Positions 30,001 through 60,000 are shown, counted from the stretch's first letter. The stretch is DNA of 64,000 nucleotides from Candidatus Omnitrophota bacterium (GCA_037146775.1 JBAWWL010000001.1:69464-133463), one strand, 5' to 3'. Notes: a model not told the origin generated them from the letters alone. Program-made: numbers and translations.

Positions 30001-33000
30001 CGAAAACCCTTGCGGCGCGTCTATTTTAATAGAGAGCGTAGATAGTATTGATGATATTCAGGTTTCAGAAATAAATCAAACCCATTTCTGCCCTAGTATT
30101 ACTATCTCTGCTAGTTCGTCCAGCTCGTCGCTCGAAGAGGGTATAACCAAATCCCACCCCGGAGGTGGGCTTTGGTTGGATATGCCGCAACGTTTCAGTT
30201 CGTATCAGGATATCAACTCACGACTCACGACTTATGACTCACGACTAAATAAAACTAGCTCGCCGTTGTCAGCAAAAGAGCTTACGGTTGCAGAACAGGC
30301 TAAGCTTGTTGAAGCAGAACAAATTCTTGCCGCAAGAAGAGAGTCTGCGGATTTTCTCTCAAGAACATCTGCGTTATATCCGGGAATAGGCAAAACCACC
30401 GCTATCTTTAGGCTGATGCAGCAACTTTTTGGCGGTCAACCAAAAGAAGATGCTTATCTGCAGTTAACCTATCGCTGTAGTTTCGGTTGTGATGATTGTA
30501 TTGCTATTAAGGTGTTGCAAGGCTCCGGTAGAATAGAAGCCGATGAATCAACATTATATAGATTGCTCGATAGCCTTAAAGGATTCAAGCGGATATGGTT
30601 TGTTGGCGCAGGAGAAACTACTGCCTGGGGAAAAGAAAACTTATTCACGCCGAGAGTAAGCGATAAATTTATCCGGCTAATTCAGTATGCCTGTGACTGT
30701 GTTGGTCCTGGTGGCAGGGTGATGATTGTTACCAATACCTACCTTATTCCCGAAGAAGAAGCTTTGCAGCAGGAGTTTTTCGGCCGATTCCAGCGCGAGA
30801 ATATTACCTGGGTTGTGTCTGTCGATTATTTCCATGAAGAGAAACTACGCCAACATCACAATAAAGAATTAGCAGCGATCACTAAATCTATGGAAAAGCT
30901 TGCTTACCGCAGGTTTATTAAAACTGCTTACGAAATGAGATTTGTAAATTCTCATGATGAAACTTTACGTCAAGAGATACTTGAGCATTTTGGGCTATAT
31001 AACAAATACTTAACAAGCAGAAATGATTTTGCTATTCATGACCCGGTTGCCATGGGAAATGCCCAAAGTCTTTCCGGTGCGCGGCCACTAGATCTTGCAG
31101 CGCTCATCAAAGATAACCGCCAGCCTTCCAAGTTGGTTCTTTATGTTGATCCCCGGGGCAATGTCGTTACTTTACAGTTTGTCGCATATATGGAACAGAC
31201 AACTAAAGATATGTTGCACCAGGTGTCAGATAGCAAAGAGAAATTTGTTATTGGTAATATTTATGCTAAACCGCTTGCGGATATTATCGCGGAGGAGTTA
31301 TTACTAGGAAATTACCGTAGAGCCTATCGCAGAGATATGTATTATTTCGTGCAAGATAGAATCAGGCGGTCTATAAACGAAGAGAAGAAGGCAGAGACTT
31401 TTAATCGTTCCTTATCGTTTGTGGAGCGCAGTGTTGTCTGGTATGTACTGGGAGAAGTTGAGGTAGCCCGCGCTTATCTTAACGTACCATGTGTTACCCC
31501 TGATTTGCGCTTGAATGTTTTGGATACGGTTTATCGTATACTTCTTGAGGCTAATAGCATTGACGCGGTAAGTTTTACCCGTGATTGTTTCCCGCAAGAA
31601 TTTAATGCGGAATTCCTTAAAGAGAACGGAGTTGAGCTTGGCGATGCCATGGCCGTTCTTTTTTCTGACCGGTCGCTACGCTTGGCTATGGAATATAGTA
31701 ATCATTTTAATGTATTAAGTGATTGGTGCGGTTTTCCTCGGATCTGGGCGAACTCTATTGATGGACATAAATTATGTTGTCCTGTCTATAGGTTCGAGTC
31801 AGTAATGCACCATATGAGTTTTCATCCAGGCAGAAATCTGGGGGTATGGCAAATAACTCCAGTTGCGCCTGGAGGAGAACATATTGAGATTAAATTAACG
31901 CATGGTTGCAATAACAGTTTACGCATTTACCGTGAACACTACGCACTCGACCATGCTGGTGTCGGCTCGCACTGTATCGGTTTAGCTACCGATCAATATG
32001 CTACTTCTTACTATTGCATGGTAGAGGATTACTCCGCTATGCAAGATTTATTCTTTGTTATTCAACAGGCAGTTAATGCTAACAGGCAGTATCAACGGTT
32101 AGCGAGCGTTTGTCGTTCGCTCGGTGAATTTTCTGCGCGTATAGATCGTGCCGAAATTTCTTTTAATAAAGATTTTCCGCAAGCGCCTGCTGTCATGGTT
32201 ATTGGGCAAAGAGGAATAAGAGAGGATAATCAAATCGCAATGCGCCAAGACGGTACTTTTGTGATTGCTGATAGATATATACTTGCGCAAGAACCCCAAG
32301 GGCAAAAGGCAAGTGTACAGTTAAAAACCATAGTGGTTAATTTTGCGGCAGCTTGTGCCGCACAATTACCTGCAGAGAGTGTGGAGTTGGTAAGGCAAGT
32401 GTCCGAGAGCGCTTTTGGTGATGGGTTCGCCCGTGGTTATGCTTCAAGCGCTATAATCTCTGATAACGATGTTGGCTCAGCCAACTCACCGTTAGTAGCT
32501 ATGCAATTTTCCGTAACTTTTGATAAAAGAGCCATTTTTCCGGATTCAAATGGCCGCGATAATAAAAAAACAGGAAACAGAAACAATACAAATTGGTTGC
32601 GGCGGGATCGGGGCTGGCCTACCTTTCCGTGGCTGGCGGAGGCCAACTTCCCTGCCGTACCTTCCCGTTTACGTTTTACATTGCCTATATATATAGGTAA
32701 GGGTTTTAGGCAGCCAGATAGCCGCGGCCCGCCAACAGGAGTCTCTAATTTATCTGCTTACTCGCTCGCCAAAAATTTCCCCGATAATCAATTAAGTTCA
32801 CCCCTCAGCTGTTCCTCGGAGGCCTTAGGAAGAGTTCGTAATGCTTTGTCCGGACGAGAGTGGTATTCTGGTCATGAAGAATTAGCTAAAGGAATGGTAG
32901 ACGTCTTGGTGGCAGCTTTTCAGAGTAAAAATATTGATCCTTCCAACCGTTTACGTTACGGAGTTATTCCTGTGATTGGTGCTGCTAAAAACTTGGACAT

Positions 33001-36000
33001 ATTTATTCAGTGCATGCAGGCTGCTATTGATATCGCCCAGCATATTGTTACGCCGGGAGAACACGGTATTGATAAATGGTTTGGCCCGGATGCGGCTTTT
33101 GCCGTAGATTTTGAAATACCGGATTGTGCTTATGGTACAAGTGGGTCGAATGACTTAAGAAGTAGACTAGCCGCAATACAAACAAAAGCTGAATCTAGGC
33201 TATTAGTAAAAGCAGCGAAATTATCCTGGAAGCAACATTTTAGAATTGGGCGTAATTTAGGCTATACCAACTGTATACATTCCGGCCCCCTTGGCCCATC
33301 TTGGTCTCCTGGATCGGTTGCTTACGGTATAGCGGCTATTGGTGCCTACCATAAATTTATTCATAACTATAGTACGGTATTAGAAGATATGCTTGTAGGA
33401 AATGGCGAAGCTGTGCAATTGATGGCAAAATTAAGCAGACATATTCGTTCGCAAAGAGAACTTATCTATCAAGGAAACCTTCGTCGTTCAGAGGATTTTG
33501 TCGCCGGAGTTACTGTGCGGGAATGGCAGTGGGATGAAGAATGGTGTCTATACCCGGAATTAAATCTTCAGTATAACGCAGTAGTTAGCACTATCCAGAG
33601 AATAAAACATTTTGATCAGGTGGTTATGCGTATTATAGGTGATATTACCAGTGTTTATCGAATGAAGAGAGGAAAATTTTCCTCTTTACCGCAATGTGAA
33701 GAAGAGGCAATACTAGCGCGGGAATATCTTGATTACATAAAGCGCCAACATTGGGATAGCAGATATCCTTATCTTTGGCCGCCTGTGTATCGTGCGGTAT
33801 TTTTACTGGATTATTTAGGCAAATATATTGATTGTAACGGAGAATCCACACAGGAGATTATAAGAACCGGGCAGGCGCTTGATGTCGGTATTGAATGGCT
33901 TGCTACTAGTGGAATGGAGGTACCAAGTTGGTTTGTTCGCCAAAGAAAGATTATTGAGTTAGCAGAGCAATATGGTGTACCGCAAACTCCCAAAAAATAT
34001 TTGACCATACTACAGAAAGCTTTGCAAGAACCTACTCCTTTAGGCTGTGACCAAGTCTGGCACGCACCAATAGATTTTACAGATTGTGTAGAAACTAAAT
34101 CAGCGTCAGTAATCTCTTCGACAACAGAAAACATTGAAGAGCTGGTTGTTATCGGGGACGTACACGATAATGTATCTGGCTTAGCAATATTGCTTTCGGA
34201 TATACGCCAGTATTATCCCAGAGCTCGTATGATTTATTTGGGGGATTACGCGGATAGTTCTGATGACAAAGCTGATCCCCGGGAAACTGTACGGGTAATT
34301 AACTCTGAGAAGGAACAAGGATCGATACCTATTTTGGGTAATCATGATTTTGCCATATTGCGGGCAGTAAAAGGTGACAGAGAGAAATTCGTTTGGTGGC
34401 TGGATAATAGAGGAGTGCATACTTTTCACAAAATACTTCGTGTAACGCCTGTTTTTGACGTATCCGTTGCCGGAGCAGGGCTCACGGTTGACGAAAGCCA
34501 GGTAGCACAGGCGCTTAAAAAAATGCAAGAAAACGAATTTTTCCAACTTCTGGCGCAAAATTACAGTGAATTGCCTTTATTTTACCGTAATGATGCTTTG
34601 GGTATACTTTGCCTCCATACTGGGCCAAGCCTTGAAGTCAGACAGCTTAATATTGTACAAGACACCAAGAGCCTAGAGGTATTGAATCGATCTTATACGA
34701 TTAGAAATTATAATCAGCGGGATGTTTGGGAATTTCTCATGTATAAAGGATGGCATAATGTGAAAGAAGAAAAAGTTGAAAGAGCGTGTAAACTTTTCCA
34801 CGCGCCCTACCTCGTTCTGGGGCATATTATCCAACGTAAAGAACCGTTTTACCGGCGTATCGGCAATGCTTTTATGATCGATAATAATCTTCAAGGCTAC
34901 CTGTTTGTTTCTAGAGAAAGAGGAATAAGGTTTATACGTCTTTTGTCTGATTCAGCCCGCGATGAAATAGCACTGGTAAGTGCTTCCGAATACACCCAAC
35001 GTTTAGCTGAATTTAGGAATTTAGGAGATACCCACGCGTCTTCCGCAATAGAGAATTCACAACGCCCCGTAATGAAGAAAACGATAAGAGTAATGCGGCT
35101 GTTGTCTGTGGTAACAATACCAATAGCTGCGATTATGCTTTCATTTTATTTTGGTGGTTGGTATATTATCACGGTTAAATCAGGGTTTTTTACCGCTCTG
35201 CTTACGATGTCTATCGTCGGCGGTATTTCGCGTGGTTTGGGAATGTACGTTAACCAAACGCTTAAAGGAGAACATTTTAACCGTAAAAACGTAAAGAAGA
35301 TATTGCGTTGGGCATTGTTTGGAGGGTTGTATTTAGCGATATTTGTCTATGGTGCATGGTTCTATATTTTAAATACCTATATAACCGGCATTTTTGCGAA
35401 TATATATTTAGAGGCAGCTTTAAAAACCTTCCTTGATGTAACGCTGTTTGCCGCATTTGTCGGCCTGCCGGCAAATTTCTTTATCCACAAATTTTTGGTG
35501 TGTTTGAACAAAGAAGAAATAAATTGGAAAAATACCAAAGAAAAATTTAAAAAATTATTTATTTATAATGCCATTTTCTGGATTTTGGGATTAACTCCCG
35601 GATGGATTTGGTTTCCGCAATACATTGTCCTTATTGCAGCAAACTTGGGAATACTATATTCCGGCATATTGATCTATTATCTTGAGGAATGGCTAAGAAC
35701 TAGCGACAAGAAGGTTGCTAATAAAGTTTTTGTTCAGCCAAAAGATAATCAAGCCCCACATTCCAGCTCGCCGGTTTCAGGCAAAGAAAATATTAAAGCC
35801 AAAAAGCAGGGATTAAGAACTTGGTTAAGAAAGAATTGTATGTTAGAGGATTGTGATGAAGCGCTTAGGGAATATCAAACTCAGTGGTGCCCGGCTGAAG
35901 TTGCTTTAAGAAAAATTAATCGCGATATTGGTGTAGATTCTGATAGCCCACGATATCTTTATCGTTACAGAGGACAGGCTCTGATGTTTGACGAATTGTG

Positions 36001-39000
36001 CGTAGTAGCTACAAAAATAATGGAAGTAAAACATACAATCAGAAAAGAAATTGATTACTCTGTAAATGTTTGGGAGACCATTGAATTTGCTTTTGATATT
36101 GCGCGTTCAAGAAGCAAGCATAATTACCTTGCGGTTATTTTTGAATTGGTGCCTGGTAAGCATGGCGTAACGGGTTGTTCGACGCATCGTGATATTGATC
36201 CAAGAGCTATCCGCCGTGTGTTTGTCTATAACAAGATTACAGAGCATTTCGAAAGGGTTTACAAAAAATATTTAACACAAAAATTACGCCATGCCAGTTC
36301 ACCAAACGTTAATGATCCATTGGACAATCTTTTATTGGCAAGAATTGCTCTTGATGATGCTTTGGCCGATGAAATCAGCCTTTATGTGAGTAATTGTTTT
36401 GTTAACATAGGAATACGCAAAAAATTCAGAGGTAATCTTGAGTGGGTGAGAGATTGTTTGCAATCAATCGCAAAAAAGATAAAAGGTGGGCAGTATTCTT
36501 TACTAAAGGCAAAAAGTCGTATCAAGGAATTACAATTAGTTGACACGCTTAAAAATTTATTTCACCTTGTTTTAACAAGAGATAAAGATATCTTTTTGCA
36601 TTTAAGCGATGAGCAAGTCCGTAAGATGGCTGGTGATGATGGGCATCTGCGGGTTGCGATCGACTTTATGTTTTTATTTTCCGAAAGCTTAGCTTCAAGC
36701 TCTAGTGTTTTTGCACATGATTCTCACTCCATACTCCATACTCAATACTCAATACTAGATAAAGCCAGTTCATCCTTACCAGAAAATGCTTCGCCGCGCG
36801 CTCCTCCTGAGCTTGAGGATTTACTCAAAATAGAAACGGGTTTACCGCATTTACTTTCACAATTCTTCTTAAAGAACCGAGTAATACTTGCCTTATTAAC
36901 CGCGCTCACTCATGCCCTTGGATTTTTATTTCTAGGAATGGCAAAACATTCACTTTATCCTATGCAGCTTGCTTTTTGGCTCTTTTTCTTCAATTTATTT
37001 ACCGCCTGCATAGTATTTTATCTTTTAGCAACTAATAATAGCTCGCAAAGTACTTTTAAATTCTTTTTTAGTCTTTTTAAGGTGCTACGTAAAAAAGACT
37101 TTGTGCACCTATTTTTACCTTCATTTATTAATGTTATAAGTTCCATTATTTTATATTTCATTTTTCCTTATGTCCCTGGAGCAATCATACTGACATTTTT
37201 ACAATTAACTATGTTTACCGCACTTCCTTTAGCTTTGCTTTATAATGGCGAAAGAGAAGGCTGGGGGAGAAAGATTGTCGGTGTTTCTATAATTGCTATC
37301 TTAGGATTATTGCCTATGCTTGCCAGCGCCAGTCTTTTTAATTTATATGCTTTATATGGAATTGTCATCGGACTTATGTATGGATTGATTACTCCTTTTG
37401 GCCGCAGGCTTTATCAGGATGTATACCGCCGCGCAGTAGTACAAGATAAAGACGCGCAAACTTTATTTGTTAATCTTCCTTATTTTACCATGGTAATCAG
37501 CTACGCAGTGGGTTTGCTGGTTATGGCACTTACAGTATTTTTTATTTTTCCGACGCCGCTGCTTACTTTTCAAGGAACTTCAATAATTACCGGCCGTATC
37601 CTATTGCCATTTTTTATAGGGATTACATTTTTTATCGGTACCTGGATTTGTGCCTTAAAGTTGCAGCAAATGTTTACATACAATATTTCGAAATATTCTC
37701 CCCTGACTGCATCTGGGCCAATGTTCAGTAAGCTTATTGAGGACGGCATTATGCATGGTGGGCTACTGCATCTTGAAATGTACCCTTCGTTACTTCCACC
37801 GCTTGCGGTAATTCTGGGTGCCTTTATTGCCGCAACCGGAAAGAACAAGAAAGATCATCTTTCGCAAAATAGTATGTCAAATATCGCCAAACAACAACTA
37901 ACTTCAGCTAATTCAGCTTCTCGAAGCTCTTCGAGTGTAGGAGAATCTTTTGTGGCCACACCTACTTTAGATAAAAATACTTATTTCGTTGGCTCGCCGA
38001 GAGGCAATTTGGTAAGAATCTCTGTGTCTGTTTCAAAAATAAGAGCAGTAAATGCTTTATATCGTTCACAAACAGATCCTACGCCGTGTCAGGGAGAGAA
38101 AGCTTTAGCGCAATTGGCAGCTTTTCCCGAATTTCCACACAATTATAATTCGCGACTCACGACTTATGAATCACGACTAATCTTATTTAAGGCAGACCAG
38201 TTTCGTCGCATTGCGAGCGGGACGAGTTCCCCGCTTAGTTTAGAGGATTTGGATTTAACTACGCAGAGCTTACTCGGCGAAGGCAGTTACGGAAAGGTTT
38301 TTAAGGTATTTCAGCGCTGTGCCGACACAGTGTATGCTCTCAAGGTTTATTGTGGTAGCTACCCTCATCAGCCGGATGAGCGGATGCCTTTAATCGATTA
38401 TTTGTTAGATTTTTCTCTTCGATACCCACAACTAACCAGTCGCGGTGCTATGCCACGTTGTTATACTAAGGGAGAGTGTTGGTTGAAAGAAGATAGGATC
38501 GTTGAGGTACCTAACGGGTCTTGTGTTTATCCTTGTGTTATTATGGACTATATTCCCGGCGAGAGCTTAGAGGCGCGCTTAGGGCAGGAATGGCGCACAA
38601 GAGGGAGTTGGCAGCATTGGATTAGTATTCAAGACGCCGTCGAACGCGAGTATGCCGGACTTGCGCTTTTAGAAATATTCGATGTAGTCAAGGCGAAACA
38701 GCTTTCCATTATCAAGGAAAAATTGGAACTGGCATCACGTATCGCGCAAGCAGTCAGTGCTTTCCATGCGGCTGAGATAGTTATTAAAGAATTAAAACCC
38801 GACCATATCATCTTAGGACCAGAGGAAGCGATAGCTTTGGTTGATCTTGAAGGTGCAGTTCCGGTTCATTATGATTGGCAGGAAAACTCGCGTAATATTC
38901 CGCGGGCAGTACGTCGTACACACACAAGAGGGTTTTCGGAAAACCCTGTTTTGCTACGTAGCGATGACCCTACTGTACTGGGAGAGCTAAAAACCATGCT

Positions 39001-42000
39001 TACCGAGCAGTGGGATATTTATAGTTTCGGAATTGTATTGTTTGAAATGGTAGATGTTGTTACCGCGTTGACCTGTAAAAAAACCAGCGACGGGGGATAT
39101 AGAGAGGTTATGCCATTGACGCGGATAAGAGATGAAATAGACAGTTTAAGAAGAAGCCATCCTTGGGGCGACATTAATGGTGTGCTTTTAGAGATTTATT
39201 CTGTGATTGAACGCTGCACTACACTTGAACGCTCACTCCGCTATAAAACGCTTATTGAGGTTAGCGATGACTTGCGGCTATTGGCTGCACGATTGGCTCT
39301 ACAGATAGAACCAATCGTATCAAGATATTCAGCGCAGCGCATTGTGGCTAAGAATGAAGATGGCTGCGCCAGTTCACCGCTGCAAGACTTTATCTATCAA
39401 GAACTAGGAATTTTTGGTCCAGGAGTTGTTTATCCGAATAAAGTAATTTTTGTGGTTGGGCCTAGCGGTTCTGGAAAATCAACCCTAGAAGATGAATTGC
39501 TTAAACGGTATCTAGATAAATTTATTAAGCCGGATCGGGTCAGGAATAGGCTGCCCAAGCCGGGAGAAGAAAAAAGGAATTCCAGGGTATTTGTTTCTGC
39601 CCAAGAATTTATGGCTCGAGAAACGAGCGGAAGAATTCGTTTTGCCACTCAATTACGCGGTAATTGGTATGGATATGATGTTTTTCATCTGCTAGAGGCA
39701 ATGAGATCAGGTAAAACTATGCTTGTCTCAGCTCATGGAATTTTAGATCGCATACGGCCTTATTTTCCTAATAATATGGTAGTGGTGATTTCATCCGTAG
39801 ATTTAAATATCACCACGCAAGGGCAATTACAAGATGCAGTAGAAAGGAGGATCCACGCTCGTAGTCGCACCATTTCCCAGGAAGAGGTCTCATCGCGACG
39901 TAAGGAAGCTTTAATATATCTTCCAAAACCATCCGAGTGGGAACAGGTTATTAATCCAGACGGCCGGCTTACGGAGGCGACCAATAGATTTATAAAATTA
40001 GCAGAGCAATTTATTCAACAAAGACGAAAGCAAAAAGCACTAATTCTTGATTTAAATCATACCTTGTATAATCCGGATGCCTTAGGCGTGACCAAAGCAT
40101 ATCGCGAGGCAAGAAGTGAATTTTTATCCCAAGAATTGCAATGTACTCAAGAACAAGCTAAGGAACGATATCGGCAAGAAAAAGCGCAACTTAAAGCAGA
40201 AGGAAGAGGCGCTATCAGTGTGGAAGTTTTACAAAGATTAGGTATCAATCCGGCCAGGTGGGGTGAGGCTGTTATCACAAAACTGGATTTTGGCGGCCGC
40301 TTCGCAGGACAACTTAAGGAAGATGTGCGATTGCAAGCAGTGCTTACCAGTCTTTCTCAAAAGTATTATCTAACCTTAGTGACTACCAGTGTAGCGGAAT
40401 TTACAGAATTGATACTTAGCTCTTTGGGGGCAAGGCATTTCTTTGATTATATAACTACAGGTTCAGATATTCCTATGCTAGCTAAACCTGATCCAGAACT
40501 GTATAGAATGGTTTCTCGTGCGTTAGATGTACCGATGGAAAATTGTTTAGTAGTCGGAGACAGTGTAGACAAAGATATAGAACCGGCGCAAAGAGCAGGG
40601 GCAAAGACATATTGTATAAGCGGTCAGCAGGATATATACCGCATAGACGAATTAGCCGGAAAGTTATTAGGAAAAAGTGGGTGCGCGGTCAGTTCATCTA
40701 TAAAACAGTGTATTAATTGGAACTTGAAAGATTATATCGATTTACCACAGACACGGCAGGCAATGGGGATTCTTCTAGCTGATAAATATGTTTTTTTCAG
40801 TCGTAACCACAAAGCCAAACCGCAGCAATTGTTATTTCAATATCGATGTAGCTCTCCCGGCTCCTTAAGGTCTGATTTGCCGGCTCAAGCGGTAAGGCAA
40901 AGTTTACAAGCCGCTATTTTGATTCGACTAGAGCAACATGATAAAAAACGTGTTTTTGTTATAAGGTTATTCGGGCCTCCGGGTTCAGGCAAGACCGAAG
41001 TGTACACACCTTTTTTAATGCATTGGTTAGGACAAGAAAACCTTAAGATAGCACATGTTACTAGTTTAGGTAGTCTCGAGGCAGAGCTTTTAGAGGTGAT
41101 GGTGCACGATATAGATGTTTTAATAGTTGAAACTAGCGATTATGAATTTAGGATTAAAGATTTAAAAAATGTTGATTTTTCTATAAGACTTTCTAGTAGT
41201 CGGCAAAGCAGAGAAGAACATCTTAGGCTAGATGGAATCGGCGGTGAAAACTTAATAAGACTTTTAGATAAAGGCGACAGAGTCCAGGCGAAAGGCCTCA
41301 ATTGGCAAGATCCAGATATTATTATTGATATCGATAGCGGTGAAATAAGAGGAAGAAGGCGCGTAACTTTATCGTTGGAATATTTAATAGAGGAAATCCT
41401 TAGGGATTTTCCTCTTGCTACTAACGCCGAACTTGCTAGAGAAATCAAACAACAATATGGCTTGGAAGTTGAAAGGGAATGTCCCGATTTTTATGGCCGC
41501 GTAACGGTGCTAAGAAAGGCGGTAGATTTGGATATGGGTATAGTAACCAGGACGTTTGTAGTCCATGCACAGACTGGTCAGCATCACGAGGCGGTGATCG
41601 CGATTGGAACAGACGTAGTTAATCCTCTAACCGGAGAGCTACTGCCAGAATCTGAGTGTAATGGTCGTTTATTAAGACCAGATTTGTATGGCCCATCATA
41701 TGTTTCGGCCAGATTATCGATAGGAAGAGTAAATAACCTATGTGAGGGTAGATTTGTGTATCGTCTACAAGACTGGAATGGTCATCCGAGTATTGAAGTG
41801 CATAGTGTGTTTGTAACATTGCACAACCAGCATGTTTTTGGAGATAAAAGGTTATATAAATTCGTGGGGGCCAGATTGATGCAGACAGCAGCCATCATAA
41901 GCAAAAATAATTCTCAAACCCAAGGAGCCTTTCATCTAAGGTCTTTAAAGCTAAAAGCAGAGGCTCAAGATTTTTATACTGCATTTGCCGATTACGGACT

Positions 42001-48000: not shown

Positions 48001-51000
48001 TATAGATTTAGGCTTAGATACTACCAGCCAGTTACACAATAAAATTTTAATTATAAAAGGCGCATGGCGTTGGGCAGTAAGTAAGCTTGATCGGGGCCTG
48101 CAAAAAAAATGGACAGAAGACGTTCTTACCTGCTGGCATATTCAAGGAGGTAGAGTTATTTTTCTTTCTTCCAAGGACGGTGATGATGGTATACGTTTCT
48201 TCGAAGAACTTGGCTATGTGAATGTAAACCCGGTAGCGCACGATCTTTCCCTTGTCCTTTCTAGAATTAAACAACCGTATTTTTGTTGGAGTGGTTGCAC
48301 TATGCTTCTTGTCCCTGACAGAGTCGTTATCCTCGAAAAGCCTTTTATAGTTCCAACTTTAAATACTCCAGATGCAAGATTAAGGCTGGCTTCTTCGCCT
48401 TTGCACGATAGCCAATTTGATGAGCAAAACGGCGGAGAGCGCGAGCTTTCGCTTGACGGTCAGCCTGTGTGGGCGCAGTTTAAGAAAATTCGAGACCAGG
48501 TTTGGGCGATATTTAGAGAGAAGAAAGACGAGATTGTCAGAAGCTCTCATCCGGACTGGGCAAGTGTCATGGGTTTTGTCGGCGGCAAACTTGGGCTTAT
48601 GGCAAATGTTTTGTGGGCTGATCATCGTACTCAATTAGTAATGGCAAAGCATCTTACTCAGTACATGTGTCAATTGTCGCGTACTAGACACAGTCAAATG
48701 ACTGCCGAAGAAAGAGCGGAACTCGAAGAAGTAGGAATTACAGAACCTGGAGTATATGTGGTACATCCTTCTCCTTTAGTAGACTTAAAAGAAAAGCCCA
48801 ATGGTAGAAAGGCGCTAATTTGTTTTATTTTACATGAGTATTTACAGCTTTTATGTGAAGAGCAAGGTTTAATTGATGCGGAATTCGCTTATTGGTTTGG
48901 TCATAGCGGTATTGAAATTATTGAGGAAGAACTGCGTTTTGCTCATGAGTTAGGTTGCCTTGAGCTGGTCATCGCTGAGCGCAGGCGTTCTTTAGAGTGG
49001 TTTAAGAAAATACGTAAAGGAATACCTGAAAGATTAGTAAAAAGATTTGAAGCGCTTTTACAAAGAGCTGGAAGCGGAGAACTATTTAAAGCCGCTCCCG
49101 GCCAAGGGCTTTATCTTGATATTGCAGGCCAGGGCTTAGAAGATTTTTATAGGGATTTTTCGCTTGATAATCTAAATTTCGTTACCAGCAACAGTTCGGA
49201 GGTTTCTTTGCATCCCCAAAGGCCTTACGCCTTTGGATTAAGAAAATGCACTGCCTGCGCTTTTACGGCTAGTGATGGTGGCATAGCGGTCGCGCACTAT
49301 AAACCGGATGCATTAATGCACCAGGCAAGAAATACAGAAACAAGGTTTGCCCCTTCTTTAGCAAAAGTGCGTTTCTTGGAAGAAGTATTTAGCGGGATAT
49401 TAGATTATCAGCTGCAAGGACCAGCATTGTCATGGATGAGAGGGCTGGTTATATCTCCTAAGACACCGCAAGTCTTAGAGACACATTTACGTTCATTTTA
49501 CGGAAACGAGTTTGTAAATCAGCTTGGTGATTATTGTATTACACCGGAAGATACAACCAATTTTGTTGCCTCTCACTTAAAAGGCGTAGCGAGTTTGACG
49601 CGTCAAAAAAACTATTGCGTTGCTCCGAGAGCGCATCTTAATGTTTTTGTTATGCCGGATAGACATGTTGTCGTAGATACCGCACACGAGCATGCCTTAA
49701 TTGCAAGAGACAGTTATGATTTTAATATAGACGAGTTTGATCAACCAACAACAATTAGTTCTTCACCGTTGGCTCAGCCGCTATACCAGTTTACCCCAAG
49801 GCACCTTGCTTTAATACTTGATATAGCCAAAGATCTAAGGGAGAGAACAGGGGAGCAAATAAGAAAGGCCGAAGCCATTCTTAGAAGTAACTTTTTAACC
49901 GACGACGTAGGTGGCCAGTTAGGTCAACTTCAAGGGCTGATCTCGGATATTAACGCTGTGATTGATAGGGTCTGCGAAGAAATAAAAAAATATTTAGTAG
50001 CTATTTGTCGAGAAAGAGATTCTACCGGAAAATACCTTATTTTCTCCGCTGGTTTGCATGTCAGAGGAGATGAAGACGAGGTCGTGAGAGATGTTCTTTA
50101 TTTAAGTTTGAGGCATTATTTACAAGGGCGTTTTTTTATATCTACGATCATTTCGTTGGCGCTAGAGCAGAATGCATTAAGCGAAGAAAGAATTATAAGG
50201 TTACAAGAACACTTTTATTCTATACGGGATGCGATAGAAGGTTTAGCTTCCTTAAGTGATATTGTTATAGAGGATGGTAACTCTTCTCGGCTTTTGGTGC
50301 TTTCTCAGAAAACTAGTTCGTCTAGTGTGGATAATTTTTCCACGCAGCTAAGACTGTTGCAATCTTTCGACGATAAAGAGCTGCGGCGATGGACTATCCA
50401 GCAAATACGCGATGCGTCAGTACAAACAATAGAATTTTCTATGGAAATTCACGAAAAGTTTAGACGGTTTTGCACCGCTGAACTGGCTGAAGAAGCGATG
50501 AGTATTTGGCGTCAAAGAGGCCGCGCATTATTGGAGCTACCGTTTCCAAACAGCAACCCTATGGGTGAAGGGCCTTATTGGAAGTCACCCATAAACCAAA
50601 TTGCGAGCTTTCTTGGTGGTTTGGGGGTAAATGAACAAGATTGTCTATTAGAGGTTGGCGGAGCAGATTCCCTGCTTTCACTTTTTATGGCACACGCATT
50701 TAATCTGCATGCTACTAGCGTAGAGGTAGTGCGCGCCTGGTGTGAATATGCCGAAATATACCGTAGTATTCTTATTGCTAAAGGTTCGGTAAGAGATGGT
50801 CAGGTAGAGTTAATAAATGATAACTTTATCAATGTAGATTTTTCTAAATATTCCATGGTTTATTATATTGGTTTAGGTGCATGGAGAAAGTATGAGTTAT
50901 TAATAAAAATGTTAACAGTAAGGCCTGGCTGTCGAGTGTTAATGTATGGTGATATTGAAGAAAAAATAGAAAGTCGGCTGCTCATCTATCCTTACTTTTC

Positions 51001-54000
51001 TATGCAAAAATTTGTTTTAAGTCGAAACGGTGAGCCTACCGGCTTAGGCGTTCCTCTGCGGGTGTATACCATGCAAGATGCTTCCTCGCCGCTTAGCGAC
51101 GCAGAAGATAGCGGTAGCGCTGATTTAATGCGCGATCTGCCTTTAACCTTAGCGCAGTGGTGGGAGATTATTGACAAAGAACGCCAGACAGGCAGACTTT
51201 TTGCCGGAATGGATTTAGATAATTTAGTCAGTGCTTTTGAGGAAAGTCTCAAAACACGTCCCAACCGTGGTGTCTACGCTATGGTTACAGCTATACATAC
51301 GCGTTTTGCCCGTATTGATAAGGCTTCAGAAATATTAAAGCAAGGGCTAGCCTTTGAACCAGAAAGCCAAATGCTCGTTGCTCTTGACCGGGAAGTATAT
51401 GGAATTGCAAGAATGATGCGCGATAGATTAAGTCCAAGGACTGATGAGGATAAATTTTTACACCGGGTGGTTGTCCCTGATGGAGAGGGCGACTGTTTTG
51501 CGGATACTTTGGGTTTTGACGGCCGCTGGCAGGTTTATGATTTTTCAAAAAGCCATGCATACATTGATACTCCCGCAGTGCTACAAGTGCTAAAAGCTTT
51601 GCAATGGAATATTCAAAATTACAAATATGTGGATGTAGTTATGCCGGATTTTTCACCCGAAAGAGTAGAATTAGCATATCTTGATTTTGGGCAAGTTTAT
51701 ATTGCCGAGGAGAGTATGTTACCCGGCGCTATTATAGATGAAAAAGATATTTTCTTTTTTGTTCAACCCGAGGAAAAGGCTTCGCGCAGCAAGGTAGTTG
51801 TTTGTATGACCCCTGCGTTCTTAGTCATTGAAAGAAGAGAGCAGATGCGTAGAATCAATAATGTTTTCGCCGGCGGCACCTCTTGTTTTGTGGCATTAGA
51901 AGAAAAGTATGAAATGAGATTTTCTGATGACGCAGAAGTCTCCAGAGAAACTCCCAGAGTGCTTTGCGTTTCTTTAAGTGAAGCTACTGCTCACGGCATA
52001 GATGTTTTAGAGGACTCGTTACTACGTGCTGGGATAAAAGCAGCAGCCAGAGAGATGCGCTGTCTTGATTTGCTCGATAACTATATGGATGAATTCGCAC
52101 ATTTAGAAGAATTAGACGGAATAAGCCCTAATGTATTTTGTATTTCCGTAGTTAATATGCGTACAGAATGGGCGGCACTAACCATTAGAAAAATTAGAGA
52201 ATTTTTTCCCGAAGCACTAGTTATTATAGGCGGTCCGTCTGCCCAGTATCCGGAACAACTTGCGGCATTAGTGGTTGATTTTGATTTCTTGGTGCGAGGA
52301 GATGGAAATGAAATACTTCCGGAGTTATTACGGCTTGTGGGGGGATACTCAAGACAAAGAATATTACCTCAGGCCGTACGGGAAAGGATTATGCAGCTTG
52401 CCGGAGGAATTATCTATCGCTCGCCTTTTATGCTGGTAAACCAGCTTTCACATACTAACCGTGCAACAGTCGTGCATTTACCAAAGCCTCGGCGCCGTAA
52501 TAAATACCATTATTTATATTTACGTTATGGTTGTCCGCATAATTGTTCTTTTTGTAATGACCCCATGGGCCATAAGATGCGTTTTGCCAGTATAAGAGAA
52601 ACAGTGGAGTGGTTTTTATACCGCTTATGTCTTGAGCCCGGAGTTGGCCAGGATATATTTGCTTTGGAGGAACGTCTCGAGGCTTCTGCTTGCGCGAATC
52701 AACCGCTTCAGTTTACTCAATTAGGCGGAAAAATAAGAATTGATTTTTATGATGATGATTTTGCCGCTGACGCCGCCTACGTAGAGGCATTTTGCGATGA
52801 AGCCATTAGGTTGGGTTTAGGGAATTATTTTGAATTCGCTATTGTCGGCACCAATGTGATTGATTTTTTTGAGCGCGGAAATCTACGTACCCGTCTTATC
52901 GATAAAATGTGGGATGCTGGTTTTCGCATGGTGCAATTAGGGACTGATGGCCTTTCTAATGCTGCCATCCGGCATAATCGCAAAGGTTACACCCTTGATC
53001 ATCACGTTATCCCCCTTAACGCATATCTACGCGAAAAGGGTTTTGTGGTTTGGCATAATCTGATTATCTTTCCTAATTACCTTACTTATGAAGAGGCAGT
53101 GGAATGTCTGATGCTTTATGTTTTATTGCCATTGGTTTTCCCACCAGAATTTAATATCGGTATCCAGGCAGCGCTCGGAACTCATTCCAATAATTTAGAC
53201 CTGATGCTTAACCGCCATAAGTATGATTGGGGAGAATTGGGTGCTCGAGTGGATTGTGCGATTAAAGTGTGCGGCGATTACAAGGTTCCCGTAGGTTTTC
53301 CCCATTACGCTTTGCCGGTTTCGCAAGAGTTGGCTTATACCGAAAGCGAAGTGGCAAGATTGGCAAAATTGCTTGATAAAAAAAGCATGCCGCAGATATT
53401 AGCAGAAGATGTTTCTGAAGCAACAGTAACGCGAGTTATAGGAAAATGGCACGATCTTGATCGAGCGCAATATCCCCAGATGTATGCTTTATCTGAGGCG
53501 ATTATTGATCTTGGCTGTAGCGGTATATCGTTTGAAGAAACGTTAATGCGGATTAAAAGTGAAATGATTTGTTCTGGGATCCATACTTTTACCGATTATC
53601 TTAGGCATTTACGCGGTGAAACTGAGGAATTTGCCCGAGTTGGCAGGAGTTTTGTATTGCGTTTTGAAAATGTTCGGCAATCTTTACTACAAGGTTGCAC
53701 TGAAGGTATGGAGCAGGAATTGGCAGAGATTATAGCCCAGCGGCCGGATGTTACTGATAGCTATTATTTTATGCTTGAATTATTAATCAAAGAGGGCAGG
53801 TTTCTTGAGGCTATGATGTATTTACATCGCCTGCGTCTGCAGAAATATTTTGCTCCTATGTACATGAAACATATGAATAACGCACTTAGCTATGTAAGAC
53901 TTAATCCGGCAAGATTTGATCACCCCTTATTATTCGAAGATTTACGTTTTCAGAGCCATGCCTTATTTCAGTGGATGATGTTGTTTGCCGGTATTGTTGA

Positions 54001-57000
54001 AGGGCTCGGTAATAAGAACGTGTGGCATCTGAAATTTCACTATGAAAAAACAGCCAGCCTTAATAAATTATACGATATTCTTCCTACTTTTAGCGTAGAA
54101 GACAGTAAAAAACTTTTTGATGATTTTGGCGGCGGTATCACACAGTCTTTACGCGATGGCAAAACCGTTTGGATGTTCGGCATACCTTTTAGTTTTGACG
54201 GGGGAACTCTAGGTGTGAACATCAATGATGCCAGGATTGATTTTGACAGAGCCCAGCCTTTTGAAATTGCATCTAGTTCAATCGCCGATTCATACCCGCC
54301 AATGCAAGGTTTTAGAGAAATCCACAGAAGACGCACACCTATCTCAGGCAAGGAATATGATAGTCAGCTGTATTTTGATAGTGAAAAAAGAGCAGTCTTG
54401 TGGAAGGTGGATAATGCAGTGTTTGTGAGGAAATCTTACCAATCTCATCCAAAAGTAAATTTTTATCTTGCCGAGCTAAATACCCCGGTATCTGTGGTTA
54501 TGGAACGTATATTTATACGTGATCAGGTCAACGGCGATGAAACGCTTATTAATATGTGGGAGCCGCTATTTGGACACTATCTTTTTACTCCGCCCGAAAC
54601 CACCGAAGGCGCTATTTTTGCCATACAGGATTTAAGAGAAATAATTAAGGATAGAGTTTTTATCGATTTTGGAGCTGAGGCAGGAATCTTAAGTTTTTTA
54701 GCTATAGCATGTGGTGCCAGTAAAGTTCTTTCTTTGGAAAGGGAGTGGAAGCTTAGAGATGAAATCAGGCATAACAGGAGGATTAATAATTTATATGATT
54801 GGCAAGTCCAGGATTGTCGCGGCTTTGAGAGTGTGTGGCGGGACGAAGTCATGGGGGCGGTTGTGGTTATTAACATGGACGGTTATTTCTCTCCGGAAGC
54901 GTTACTTGAAGTATTAGATAAAGGAATTCCTGCGGCCATAATATTATCAGGCGGGCATTATGCCAGAGAAAGATTAGATCCGGTATTAGAAATATTAAAT
55001 CAATACGGATTTTCGAACCGGATTATAACAATAGAACCATTAATTGGGATAAATCCATTAGAGAGCAAGCCTTTTGCTACAATCATTGCAACCCGCAACA
55101 TGCGGTCTGTTTCGGTCATTAGCTCGTCTGTTAGTTCCCCGCAAACACCTAGCTCGATACCCATGGCTAATTACTCACGACTAGGCAAGGCTAGCTCGTC
55201 CATAGATAATTATGATGAACCGTATTTAGAGCTTCACGTTTTAGAGGAATTGAGTCTTTTTAGGGAAAAGCTTGAATATGGGATGAGCTTTTTTAAGGCA
55301 ATTCTTTATCATGGCACAGGATCGGAATTTTCAGAATGGGACATTAACTTAACGAGTTCGCTCTCTAGCCGTTTAGAGCCAGCAGGTATTCGTTTGAGTT
55401 TTGCAAGAGATTATGCAGCTGGGTTTGCTATAGGAGAAGAGGCGAGAATTATTAAGTGCCGCGTCAGTTTAAAAAATCCGTGGTATGTTTCACGAACGCG
55501 TTTTTTTGCATACTTTCTATTTATTGGACAAGCGCTAGAGGAGCTTGCTTTGAGGCGGGGAGTTACTTCAGAAGATAAATTGTCGATTCCCGAATGCCGT
55601 AGCTACGTTAGGCAACGCATGCTAGAGCAAGGATATGACGGGGTTGTGCGTTGTGATGTCTCGTGTATAGAGGTAATCGCCTTTCATCCGCAAGCACAAA
55701 TTGAAGTTATAGAAGTATTTTGCGCTAGCTCAGCGATAAGTTTATTACAAGACACAAAAGAAAAAATTATAAAGGCGCTTGAAACTAAAAAAATGCCGGT
55801 TGATATAGCTAAAGAGCGAGCAATACCCGCGGCATTCTCTGCTGTGGATAGTGTTTTTGATATTCATACTCGGCCACAAGCATATGAGTTAGTTCTGGGG
55901 ATGGCTCTTGGTTTGATAGCTAAAGAGATTCCTGTCTGTAGTACTTTAGAGTATGGGGTGCCTTTGGCGATTCGTGATTCTTGTGCTTGTTTGTATGTAT
56001 TTAGAGAAAATATTTTTTGGCTTACCCGGCTTGCTGAAGATTTGTATCTTTCGTCGCAAGGCCCCATAGATCCTTACCAAACCCTTATTTTGGCGGGAGC
56101 ACTTTATGGCGAAGTTAGAAGAATCAAGACGTTTGAGGGTCTTCTTGAACGGGCCAGGCAAGATGTTAATAGAGCCAGGGTTGGTAAATATCCTAATGAA
56201 GAAGGGGTTATTGAAGTTAATATCGGCACGCAGGAAATTAGTGTTAACGAAGTTGATACAAAAGGAGAAAAATTTGATTTCAAAAATCCCGTAGAAGTGA
56301 GCCAATTTAAAAGAGAACATGGACAAGCTATTGATACAGCTTTAGGCGAAAATTGGAGAGACGTTCTTTTGGCTCAAATAAATCGTGATATTGGTGGAAT
56401 TATCTTGGGCCATGAAAGTGTTTATGTAACTTTTGCTCATTGCTGTGGTGGTACTGTGCAGGGAAGAATTATTGCCAAAGTCAAGATTCCGGCTTATAGC
56501 TTAAGAAAAGCTTTAGATTCAGTTAGCGATGGCCATTCTGCAAGCTCTCCGTTATTAATAATAGAAAATTTTACCTACTGGAGTAATGATTTTGACGGTC
56601 GTTACAGCGAGGATAGGGCGTATCATTTTGCTATTGGTGGAAAACAGGTATGTATTTCTGATCTTGAGTATGTAAAGATAACTATTCTTATTAAGCCTAC
56701 TAAGGTGATATACCTTGCAGTAGACCACAATACAAGTTGGTTCCATACTGTTTTGGCGTATAAAGAGGGCATGATCGGGGGTAATGAATTATTTGCACAC
56801 ATAGATCATAAGCAACATCCCGATGACCGCGCAATAGAGGCTAATCCTCCAGGTCGGTATGAGGATATTGGTTGGCACATTCAGCATTTAGCGCAAGGAG
56901 GTGCCAGTATTACCGGATATGTTACAGCTTTGCATAAAACATTTCCTGATATGATATTTTTGTTTCTTAAGCAATCAGATGGTGGTTCGGATGGCTGGGG

Positions 57001-60000
57001 AGGTGTTAGCTTTGATTGGGGTGGCTCAATTTTTAATTTGCCATTAGAGTATTTAAATAAAATTAAGATTGCTAGTATTGACTTGGATATGTTTACTAGT
57101 GATGTTTCTTCTAAAGAATTACAAAAGAAACTCATAGAAGTGCTCAGCTATGTCAGGGTAGGAATGGTTATTATTTCTCCAGCCGGTCCACAGGAAGCCG
57201 GTCAGCAACAGGCAATATTAATGAAAGAAATAATTGAAGATTTACTTGATAAGTTGATTCCTGGATGGAGATTACAAGAATTGGGGAGTAATGCTTTCGA
57301 TCCAACGAAGAGTTCTAGTGCTGTTCTTAACGGTCATCATGAGTCCAGGCTTTATTACCCATCTATAACTATTTGGGCTGTTCATCCAACTTTACGACAG
57401 TGCAGAGAGGTGATTAAGTGGGTCGCAAAAATGCCATGGCGCAAAACCGCTATAGTAGTGATTATTCCTTCAGATTGGGAAATGGCCTTAAAGTTTCTCA
57501 GAGATCGTGTTATCGCCAATCAACACTATTTTTATATGTTTATGTGTGAGCATTATATAGACGACGAAGGATGGTTTAATGAACAAGATATGTATAAAAT
57601 CAATGAATTGCGGCTAAAACTATCCGGGCGAGGATTAATAGCTGACGATCATTATCTATACGGTCAAAATACGCCTAACTGTATGAATATTATAGCTACA
57701 TGTCTGGCTAGAGGACTTATTTATAAGGGGCAATGTTGCAGTCCGCGTTTTAGCCGCAAATATACTCCATGCAAAAATTATTGTAGCTCAAATAAACTTT
57801 TTGTTATTGAAGATTTTACAATTACTGGAAGAAAGGGAATTGGCGTTCTTAATGACGAACAGCGTCGCGATTATACTCTTTTGAGTTTACATATTTCTGA
57901 GATTGAGAGGAGATATTTTGATACCGGCAATGGCGCTACCAGTTCTCCAGCTATGCACAGAAAAATGAAAGAAAAAGAACAACAAGAAAGAAAATCTTGG
58001 TTGTGGCAGGTTATTACAGGTCAGTTTACCTTTCCGTGGCTGGTGGGAGCTGACCAGCCTGCCGCAGCCGTCTCGTATGGTTACAGAGTAATGTCTTTTG
58101 TGATGACAAAATCATATCTTTTTAGTAGCCTTGCTAATAAAGCCCCTCCGTCTGTGAGCGTTTCGTTGGTCAGTTCTCCGCAAAAACCTAACTCAATACT
58201 CGCGACTCACTACTCACGACTAGATAAAGCCAGCTCACCCAATGCAAAGATCTCAGCTACGGCAGCCAGAATGGCAGAAATTTTTAACAATACTATTACC
58301 CATCGCAGCGATGTATGCCATGAAGATCTATTATTGCGCAACCGGCGAGTCCGGGAACTAAAAATATTTGGAGATGCTCTTGTTGGGCAATCGGGAAAGT
58401 TTGATGATCTTGATATCCTGGGAATAAAACTTGAAGAATTAAAGGCTGGTAAGTTTCTAGAAATAGGCTCGGGTAAAAAATGTCTAATCGGTCGCTTTTT
58501 AATCGACCAATTAGAATTTGATTCCGCTAATGTTTATGCGATAGATCCTATGATGGAAGAACCCGGCAAAGATTTTGATAATAATAGCGGGCGCTTTGTA
58601 AAAGGTATCATAGAAGAAATTCCGGAATTATTCCGGGAAATCAGCTTTAATATGATATATGCAGCATATGTGTTTTCCATCAGAAGAGGTTCTATAAAGT
58701 CCGGTTTACGCAAGATTGACCCTGGAAAAGCAGCCCGAAATGTTGATGTATTTTTGGCGCCCGGCGGAACACTGATGGTGGCAGGTAAAGCTATGCCGTC
58801 TGACATGGCTTGTGAATTGGCAAGTAGATTAGCCCAGCCTTATATCTGTCAGCGACCGGGAAATCAACATAGCCTATATTATTACACAAAGCTTCAGACT
58901 TTTTCTAGCTCGCCGGGTTCCCCCAGCACCAGCAATAGCTCCAATTATCGTAAGACATTAGGCCTGTTTCGGAGAAAAGATGACATCGAAGCATGGAAAG
59001 CGCTTAATCCTGTTTCTCCTATTGATGAGAATAAGTTGCCACGCCTATTCCCTAAAGGGGTTACGTATGGGTCGCAATGGAATTATTTAAGAGGTGAAAA
59101 GTATGAAATGAAAGGATATGTGCATACTGGTTTAGATTTATTAGTTCCAGCTTCTACCCAAGTAAGAGCAATTGCCGAGGGTACGGTATTTATAGGAAGA
59201 TATAAACACGAAAAAGGTGAATATGTTGTTGTTGATCATGGAAAGGGAATGCTGTCCTTGTATATGCATGTCATTCCTCGAGTAAATACCGGACAGAAAT
59301 TGGCGAAAGGAGATGTTATAGGTGAGGTAATGCATTCATCAATACATCCATCCCATCTTCACCTCGAATTATTAGCAAATATGGAAATATCCACAGAGGC
59401 ATTTCCGCGTGAAGGAGAAGATACGTTGGAAGATAAGGAAATAAACAGGCGGTGGACTTTTATTAAATACAGTCGAGAAACGAACAGCTTGGATCCGTTA
59501 TTGGTTCTTCCACAGATAGCCGAAGGAGCGGTAATAGAAGATGATGATAGCATTTTGATGGGTGCCGATAAAGGTGCAGGCTACGCCAGCTCGCCGTCTC
59601 AATCAGTCTGTAGTCAACGGTCTACAGTCAACGGTCGAGAAAAAATGCAAAATTTTGGTGATAGGCTATTGATTATACCTGCCTGCCGGCCAGACACGGG
59701 CTATGGGCGAAATCACGCCAGTTCATCTATGTTGGACAGCAGCGTCGGCCTTTCTGTGAAATATGTGAAATTTTCTTCGCCAGGTATTCCTTTGGAGTGT
59801 GACTATAATTGGCTCCAGCTGCAAAAAGGTATTCTTCTTGAATCTTATGCAGGTAATTTGTCGCCGGAAGCCAGCCGTCTCTTGCAAGAGCCGCAGATAG
59901 CAATTTGGAATGATACGTTTACTCCGCGCATCTACCTTGAATTCGCATGGAAAACCTACCCCCCTCAGAATAATCCATGGGTTAGTATCTTATACAAAGT

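Follow-up and report, generated by a model that had tools for sequence, protein, structure and literature searches.

Giant proteins of the 'multi-enzyme' type have been described in Omnitrophota; they show a Pfam repertoire of PF08241, PF02518, PF13419, and PF04055 and are mostly sequence-unique (10.1101/2023.11.21.568195; 10.64898/2026.06.07.730766). With such recently described giant genes comes the open question of how messages of 60 to >400 kb can be transcribed, translated, and protected from breakage in bacteria, and no cis-acting RNA signal is reported in these two preprints: the word 'hairpin' does not occur in either of them, and 'linker' does not occur in the latter. Structured elements within coding regions and in-frame palindromic repeats are both already known kinds of element. 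Here, we analyzed a stretch of 64,000 nucleotides from a Candidatus Omnitrophota bacterium (GCA_037146775.1 JBAWWL010000001.1:69464-133463; hereafter, the window), which is traversed by a single giant open reading frame (ORF). With >21,000 codons tiling the same four Pfam families together with transmembrane clusters, the gene resembles the multi-enzyme giants of this phylum; no sequence relative was found, and this resemblance is only a lead. Within the gene, we identified three copies of an inter-domain linker cassette of ~100 codons with a 27-pair hairpin at its core. Our tentative reading, to which we give somewhat less than an even chance, is that the hairpin core is selected as a nucleic acid, on the sense strand, and acts in cis in the giant mRNA.

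The three cassettes lie on the same strand, in frame, inside one gene, and comprise ~95-104 codons each (Table 1). This agrees with the original prediction, made from the DNA sequence alone, which had placed three in-frame copies here and described the first two as ~80% identical; we obtained 81% identity over the ungapped 5' 146 nt (47230-47375 vs. 57940-58085). An alignment of the same two copies over 103 codons gave identities of 74% for DNA and 61% for protein. The predicted diverged third copy was likewise retrieved by a protein hidden Markov model (HMM), and a covariance model for which only copies 1 and 2 had served as input detected it as well (32591-32667, 45.3 bits, E 3e-10). Run with filters off, this covariance model found no further copy on either strand of the window. 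Copy 1 is arranged in the order Ser-Ser-Pro motif, A-rich/Lys-rich tract, hairpin, spacer, heptamer-repeat linker, and Ser-Ser-Pro motif. Copies 1 and 2 start exactly at one Ser-Ser-Pro motif and finish at the next, and a Pro-Pro pair follows ~30 codons downstream of the hairpin in all three copies. Homology between the copies stops sharply at both ends, and no shift in composition was found at the elements. The heptamer-repeat linker that forms the 3' third of copy 1 has its counterpart in copy 2 at 58190-58246, and this linker is also present, but lacks the hairpin, at 27603-27658, 30216-30271, 36726-36781, and 55151-55202.

The hairpin spans ~71-75 nt. Its basal stem of 14 pairs is followed by a 6-nt bulge in the 5' arm, a middle stem of 8-9 pairs, and an apical stem of 5 pairs that closes a GUGGCU hexaloop. 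RNA folding of the copies reproduced the predicted outer stem (GGUUGCGGCAGG / CCUGCCGUAGCC) and the three different inner stems, i.e., GGCCAGC/GCUGGCC in copy 1, GGUCAG/CUGACC in copy 2, and UGGCCU/AGGCCA in copy 3. In copy 3, the basal stem and the apex are conserved, and the middle stem has a different sequence that is still complementary. The conserved 20-nt loop of the original prediction proved to be conserved, but over 22 nt in copies 1 and 2 and exactly over 17 nt in all three copies; furthermore, it is not an open loop, since the apical region adds its five pairs around the hexaloop and is largely paired. For the shared 17-mer TACCTTTCCGTGGCTGG, only 0.11 matches are expected even with three mismatches allowed. 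When 6,393 sliding 80-nt folds of the plus strand were ranked by stability relative to G+C content, copies 1 and 2 took the first two places (z = -6.4 and -5.7; the next fold reaches -4.0, and copy 3 -2.9). Against dinucleotide shuffles, the sense RNAs of copies 1, 2, and 3 gave z-values of -4.4, -4.6, and -1.2. The next-strongest local folds in the window, at 31811-31890 (+), 28221-28310 (-), and 62671-62780 (-), have z-values of about -4. The 3' 180 nt of the element folded no better than shuffles (z = +0.4 and -0.4), so the structure is confined to the hairpin; a larger structured RNA over the whole 310 nt was therefore rejected, and the extra small helices proposed by a two-sequence alifold are not credible.

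As the hairpin lies within a coding frame, the original prediction had raised the possibility that its stems merely reflect a translated repeat under amino-acid constraint. In 3000 trials per copy, we therefore left the peptide unchanged and drew new synonymous codons according to the codon usage of the gene itself. The observed fold energy was reached in 0/3000, 0/3000, and 6/3000 trials for copies 1, 2, and 3, respectively, which places the structure beyond amino-acid constraint. Across 400 random in-frame windows, the z-values of the same procedure had a mean of -0.14 and a standard deviation of 1.13, with copies 1 and 2 as the two extremes and ~2% of windows below -3, the range of copy 3. 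Codon identity points the same way: between copies 1 and 3, the codon is identical at 10 of the 11 degenerate sites with the same amino acid (3.1 expected; P = 6e-6), including rare codons such as CTG (7% of Leu) and CGG (11% of Arg), and the helix as a whole is rich in rare codons. For copies 1 and 2, the Nei-Gojobori ratio of nonsynonymous to synonymous divergence (dN/dS) amounts to 0.91 within the hairpin (dS 0.16) and to 0.60 for the whole element, compared to 0.13-0.28, at saturated dS, in other paralog pairs of the same gene. Moreover, of the six stem substitutions that separate copies 1 and 2, four are nonsynonymous (R>W, L>F, G>D, and V>A) and yet keep the pair. The hairpin fold is, thus, not a by-product of the repeated peptide. 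Being conserved in nucleotides and not in protein, the hairpin is probably either an RNA signal or an in-frame selfish repeat.

These data bear directly on a purely protein-level explanation, in which the cassette would serve as a linker, as a short linear motif (...WLR...TFPWL...PAV...), or as part of a membrane anchor or signal, and the hairpin would be incidental. All copies are in frame, TFPWL, WL, and PA are conserved as amino acids, and a basic stretch followed by a moderately hydrophobic one bears a loose likeness to a signal or anchor. However, synonymous resampling almost never yields the fold, synonymous sites are frozen between diverged copies, and dN/dS is ~0.9 in the stems; in addition, hydropathy is too low, with the best 19-aa Kyte-Doolittle windows (1.08, 0.72, and 0.46) under the transmembrane range, so that a transmembrane segment or signal peptide was rejected. 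The cassette matched no Pfam family even at E = 10, and no protein homolog was found in 5.8 billion or 1.84 billion sequences. We consider this explanation very unlikely.

Of the 75 nt of the hairpin, 10 distinguish copy 2 from copy 1, none of them in the 22-nt apical part and six in the stems. All six preserve their pair, one pair by a true double change (C:G to U:A, 47311/47343) and four by changes of the wobble type; in addition, a terminal U-A pair is lost to a substitution at the edge of the 5' bulge. With random substitutions, at most one pair was broken in 5.4% of trials, and the energy was kept in 10%. In a three-copy model alignment, which was fitted to the structure and whose pair counts lean towards it, 76 of 78 cells pair (97.4%) and four pairs are changed on both sides. 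Four double changes were reached by 22 of 500 column shuffles, and slid registers paired at 30-58% only. What the original prediction had called classic covariation thus holds as far as one true double change between copies 1 and 2 and four with copy 3 are concerned, but it comes from three sequences and from nulls of 5.4% and 22/500; the covariation is real but modest. Such pairing-preserving changes could also come from mobile palindromes or template switching.

A marked difference between the strands was observed. On the sense strand, copies 1 and 2 form 22 Watson-Crick pairs and 5 G·U pairs without a mismatch, whereas the same G·U positions become five A·C mismatches on the antisense strand. 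Shuffle z-values for copies 1/2 of -4.4/-4.6 as sense RNA compare to -3.1/-2.3 as sense DNA and to -0.6 to -1.7 for the antisense strand. That the substitutions between the copies pass via G·U states points to mRNA. Together with the codon and dN/dS data, this asymmetry bears out the original view of the hairpin as an in-frame structure, and shows it to be conserved at the nucleotide level and sense-favoring. We consider highly improbable an intrinsic terminator for antisense transcription, which would stop spurious antisense polymerases from colliding with transcription of the giant gene. An A-rich tract lies directly 5' of the hairpin in all three copies, giving a T-rich run after the hairpin on the minus strand, and the minus-strand RNA hairpins still reach -25 to -32 kcal/mol; however, the minus-strand stems contain 4-5 A·C mismatches, the substitutions preserve plus-strand pairing only, the U-run begins 4-9 nt past the stem instead of at the stem, a terminator scan made no call, and the minus-strand z is only -1.7.

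Table 1. Coordinates of the giant ORF, the cassettes, and associated features in the window (numbered from its first nucleotide).
Feature	Position	Strand	Details
Element copy 1	47231..47539	+	aa 15744-15846
Element copy 2	57941..58252	+	aa 19314-19417
Element copy 3	32555..32839	+	aa 10851-10945; deeply diverged; found by protein HMM; Ser-Ser-Pro only at 3' end
Hairpin, copy 1	47289..47359	+	sense RNA -46.2 kcal/mol
Hairpin, copy 2	57999..58069	+	-40.9 kcal/mol; one double change and four wobble-type changes vs. copy 1
Hairpin, copy 3	32595..32661	+	-35.2 kcal/mol
17-mer TACCTTTCCGTGGCTGG	47317..47333	+	encodes (L)TFPWL; exact in 3/3 copies; also 58027-58043, 32620-32636
A-rich tract immediately 5' of hairpin	47246..47287	+	encodes HRKTKEAEKQERKP; counterparts ~57956-57997, 32561-32593
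3' third of copy 1	47477..47533	+	generic degenerate-heptamer linker (peptide TYDSRLSK); ends in Ser-Ser-Pro codons AGCTCACCG
Heptamer linkers upstream of Ser-Ser-Pro	2513-2546, 27602-27658, 30215-30271, 36726-36781, 38147-38180, 47477-47533, 55151-55202, 58190-58246		
Second hairpin family, in two other linkers	14097-14151, 30144-30178		outer stem AACCAAATCCC/GGGCTTTGGTT; peptide TKS.P..GGLWL
Giant ORF	2..64000	+ (frame 2)	single, uninterrupted, 21,333 codons, open at both ends; six-frame stop count, Pfam domains

The surroundings of copy 1 allowed us to compare the age of the cassette to that of its neighbors. The module upstream of copy 1 (46310-47257, aa ~15436-15752) has a paralog at 59774-60721 (aa ~19924-20240) with 40% identity over ~300 aa, and both are bounded by Ser-Ser-Pro at each end. 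The module next to copy 1 (...VSSPVT) runs straight into the cassette, whereas its paralog ends in ...ASSPVTSKE without one. Between copies 1 and 2, the dS of the cassette is 0.46, compared to 2.3 (saturated) for the neighboring module pair and >1.2 to saturated for the flanks. As the module dS is saturated, the cassette is younger than its neighbors or was homogenized independently of them.

This age difference would fit an element that is in-frame selfish palindromic DNA, of the Rickettsia palindromic element (RPE), repetitive extragenic palindromic (REP), or miniature inverted-repeat transposable element (MITE) kind, spread by transposition or recombination, with only in-frame, stop-free copies surviving in the ORF. 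Stem complementarity would then reflect the needs of a mobile element or recent copying, and not an RNA function of the host. The sharp homology borders on both sides, the presence of the cassette after one paralogous module and its absence after the other, the weak protein-level constraint (dN/dS 0.6-0.9), and surrounding linkers that are themselves built of nucleotide repeats (heptamers, the 9-mer AGCTCGCCG, and a second hairpin family) all fit this explanation, and translated in-frame palindromic repeats are documented for RPE, ERIC, and Correia elements (PMC2229807). On the other hand, no target-site duplication was found at the hairpin (CTT/.../GTC, CTT/.../GTC, and ATT/.../TTC in copies 1, 2, and 3) or at the ~310-nt unit, and this unit has no terminal inverted repeats. 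Homology extends beyond the palindrome on both sides in all three copies, so that the 75-nt hairpin was not inserted independently. The mosaic conservation, with basal stem and apex frozen and the middle stem changed yet complementary, resembles the outcome of constraint more than that of recent copying, a palindrome in double-stranded DNA would not be expected to show the strict G·U asymmetry of the sense strand, and no copy was found in the public collections searched. Taken together, we regard a selfish palindrome as the main alternative, albeit a rather unlikely one.

Presence and absence of the cassette beside paralogous modules would also fit a hairpin that acts at the DNA level, as a cruciform or single-strand hairpin read by a recombinase or nuclease that shuffles domain cassettes, in line with the last role named in the original prediction, and sense-strand DNA does fold better than shuffles (z = -3.1 and -2.3). 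The cassette junctions, however, coincide with the Ser-Ser-Pro codon motif (AGTTCGCCG ... AGCTCACCG) and not with the hairpin; hence, any shuffling of cassettes would not have its junction at the hairpin. Furthermore, the fold signal is stronger with RNA parameters, and the five G·U pairs are weak as G·T in DNA and mismatched on the other strand. An integron attC site was rejected, as the hairpin ends (GGTTGCGG... / ...CCGTAGCC) contain no RYYYAAC / GTTRRRY core on either strand by inspection and the frame is continuous. In copies 1 and 2, the apex contains the E. coli Chi octamer GCTGGTGG (47329-47336 and 58039-58046), which occurs twice in the window vs. 1.2 times expected; without enrichment, its presence is probably a coincidence. 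A role as a DNA-level hairpin, therefore, appears quite improbable to us.

Several other known signals were considered and rejected. Of the roles suggested by the original prediction, attenuation or termination found no support: no U-tract follows the hairpin (GUCACACAUAG, GUCUCGUAUGG, and UUCCCGUUUAC), the terminator scan was silent at the elements, and promoter and terminator consensus at the three sites remained at background level. A -1 frameshift site was rejected, as the 60 nt upstream of the hairpin contain no X XXY YYZ slippery heptamer in any of the three copies. An internal start was rejected as well; in the three copies, the hairpin is followed at a distance of 19-22 nt by an in-frame ATG, ATG, or TTG, with no Shine-Dalgarno sequence, an arrangement estimated to arise by chance in ~10% of cases. 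Comparison to RfaH ops, boxA, 16S helix 45, and the SecM arrest peptide revealed no such likeness conserved across the three copies.

Searches for relatives of the element gave no true match. Rfam returned no matches at gathering thresholds for the whole window, and permissive Rfam scans of copies 1 and 2 gave only 11.6-15 bits, compared to gathering thresholds of 39-55, with matches that differed between the copies. Word-indexed protein searches with the element, with 1 kb-aa around copy 2, and with 3 kb-aa around copy 1 found no homolog, and the only two matches of an exhaustive profile search, a repetitive adhesin with 35 weak stretches and a junk repeat ORF, were spurious. DNA pattern scans of genome, metagenome, and viral collections contained no true match; a looser pattern for the loop gave 17 chance matches, several of them in an unrelated TFPWLGP protein motif and none with a hairpin. 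Protein-guided locus searches and a plasmid/phage megablast gave no match either.

The Ser-Ser-Pro motif that delimits the cassettes is a feature of the whole giant protein. It occurs 51 times vs. 4.5 expected (11-fold; e.g., at 2555, 27584, 30257, 45098, 59588, and 62687), and inside Pfam envelopes it is absent (0 vs. 4.5 expected, P = 0.009). Instead, the motifs flank recognizable domains and paralogous modules on both sides. The 9-mer AGCTCGCCG, which encodes Ser-Ser-Pro, is the commonest 9-mer of the window, with 11 copies that are all in frame on the plus strand; its expectation of 0.35 is an estimate from peptide and codon frequencies. For the serine pair, the codon pair AGY-AGY is never used. 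The motif looks like a mark of module boundaries and may serve as a mark for cleavage, recombination, or pausing. Many Ser-Ser-Pro sites are preceded by TYDSRL(N)K, which is encoded by a short in-frame tandem array of degenerate heptamers (CGACTCA / TGACTCA / ATACTCA). The member of the second hairpin family at 14.1 kb contains an additional inner palindrome, CCTGCC..GGCAGG. This family also beats codon resampling, with only 2/2000 and 3/2000 trials reaching its stability, and is equally stable on both strands.

In the host gene, plus-strand frame 2 contains no stop codon, compared to 827-1901 stops in each of the other five frames, and no complete ORF of at least 300 aa was found within the window. 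The encoded protein is a multi-enzyme, with unrelated enzyme domains strewn along the ORF. The Pfam assignments comprise serine dehydratase beta and alpha, SAM methyltransferases, HATPase_c, a protein kinase, a P-loop/guanylate-kinase-like domain, a HAD hydrolase, a B12-binding radical SAM domain, peptidase M23, and RmlD/epimerase, and hydrophobic segments are also found in clusters along the protein. No close homolog of the giant protein was found in any protein collection searched. The ORF further contains a threefold paralogous module with 55-65% amino acid identity (10080-10770, 11710-12420, and 12940-13385; aa 3360-3590, 3904-4139, and 4313-4461) and a pair of membrane-segment modules with 47% identity (25770-26450 vs. 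35100-35800). Saturated synonymous divergence and a dN/dS of 0.13-0.28 mark the other paralogous modules as ordinary protein-constrained duplicates.

With regard to a possible function, the hairpin might be a physical roadblock for whatever traverses the very long message, and the cassettes do sit between modules. As a first choice, we would propose a programmed pause at a domain boundary, where the leading ribosome would have to melt a helix of -41 to -46 kcal/mol that is rich in rare codons. The pause would fall just after the Lys/Arg-rich stretch has been made and ~30 codons before the Pro-Pro pair, and it could give the preceding module time to fold or to be processed, or allow a lagging ribosome to re-couple with RNA polymerase. 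As a second choice, the hairpin may be a nuclease barrier or an RNase III-type processing site that would partition the decay of a message taking tens of minutes to translate. This second choice, the barrier version in particular, is weakened because every translating ribosome would melt an in-frame hairpin; it is weakened further because cleavage would leave a message without a stop codon.

Further observations weigh against a cis-acting RNA signal. There are only three copies in one gene, two of which are recent relatives, and a hairpin is found in only 3 of ~51 linkers, with no general hairpin enrichment at linkers, upstream of Ser-Ser-Pro motifs (p = 0.24). Taken alone, copy 3 is unremarkable against dinucleotide shuffles and lies at about the top 2% in the codon test. 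Statistical support for the covariation is marginal, and three sequences are too few for an R-scape-type test. That the element is younger than its flanks is a pattern that also fits a spreading repeat. As no homolog was found in the collections searched, independent phylogenetic support is lacking. For the three copies in this one gene, we nevertheless consider a functional RNA plausible and better supported than the protein-only reading.

One may go further and propose a dedicated class of in-frame RNA 'punctuation' in giant bacterial genes, i.e., sense hairpins in linker cassettes needed to express messages of tens to hundreds of kb, with the Ser-Ser-Pro and heptamer motifs as part of the same system. 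We rate this wider proposal as unlikely. If it were true, the hairpins would pause or re-couple ribosome and RNA polymerase or partition mRNA decay, and the Ser-Ser-Pro/heptamer motifs would mark module boundaries for processing or recombination. With its conservation against the protein code, its position at domain boundaries, and a fold unsurpassed in 64 kb, the hairpin offers a concrete handle on the question of how giant messages are expressed. If the element is instead a selfish palindrome, the 'selfish DNA in coding genes' of Rickettsia would extend to giant genes, and it would also suggest how repeated linkers drive module shuffling in them.

Compared to described systems, the likeness to RPE and to bacterial MITEs such as ERIC and the 107-bp Correia element lies in an in-frame, translated, long stem-loop repeat with little protein constraint (PMC2229807). 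As in these elements, the open frame is fused to the host ORF, since all three copies are read through without a stop. With regard to terminal inverted repeats, the 71-nt core folds end to end, but the ~300-nt unit has no inverted termini. The element further differs by the absence of a target-site duplication, by a palindrome that accounts for only 71-75 nt of the ~300-nt unit, by copies that were seen in one gene, frame, and orientation within 64 kb, and by stems that are perfect on the sense strand only. With dnaX-type frameshift hairpins, it has in common that an A-rich stretch inside an ORF is directly followed by a strong hairpin; the difference is the missing slippery heptamer. The heptanucleotide repeats of Beggiatoaceae, cyanobacteria, and Bacteroidetes (TAACTGA, STRR) resemble the short tandem heptamers in the 3' third of the cassette and in other linkers. 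TAACTGA repeats are mainly intergenic (PMC4679880), whereas the heptamers described here have another sequence, lie inside an ORF, and are translated (TYDSRL). A stable, irregular hairpin that recurs along a very long transcript is, finally, reminiscent of REP/BIME stabilizers and of RNase III hairpins in T7 early mRNA and Correia transcripts. Like the hairpin described here, the RNase III sites of T7 are irregular hairpins of about two helical turns with an asymmetric internal loop, and they act as RNA. An RNase III role has been described for Correia transcripts (PMC2229807). These elements lie in untranslated spacers, whereas the hairpin described here lies inside a reading frame; its predicted helix, with 27 pairs and a 6-nt 5' bulge, would be compatible in length with an RNase III substrate (~20 or more bp).

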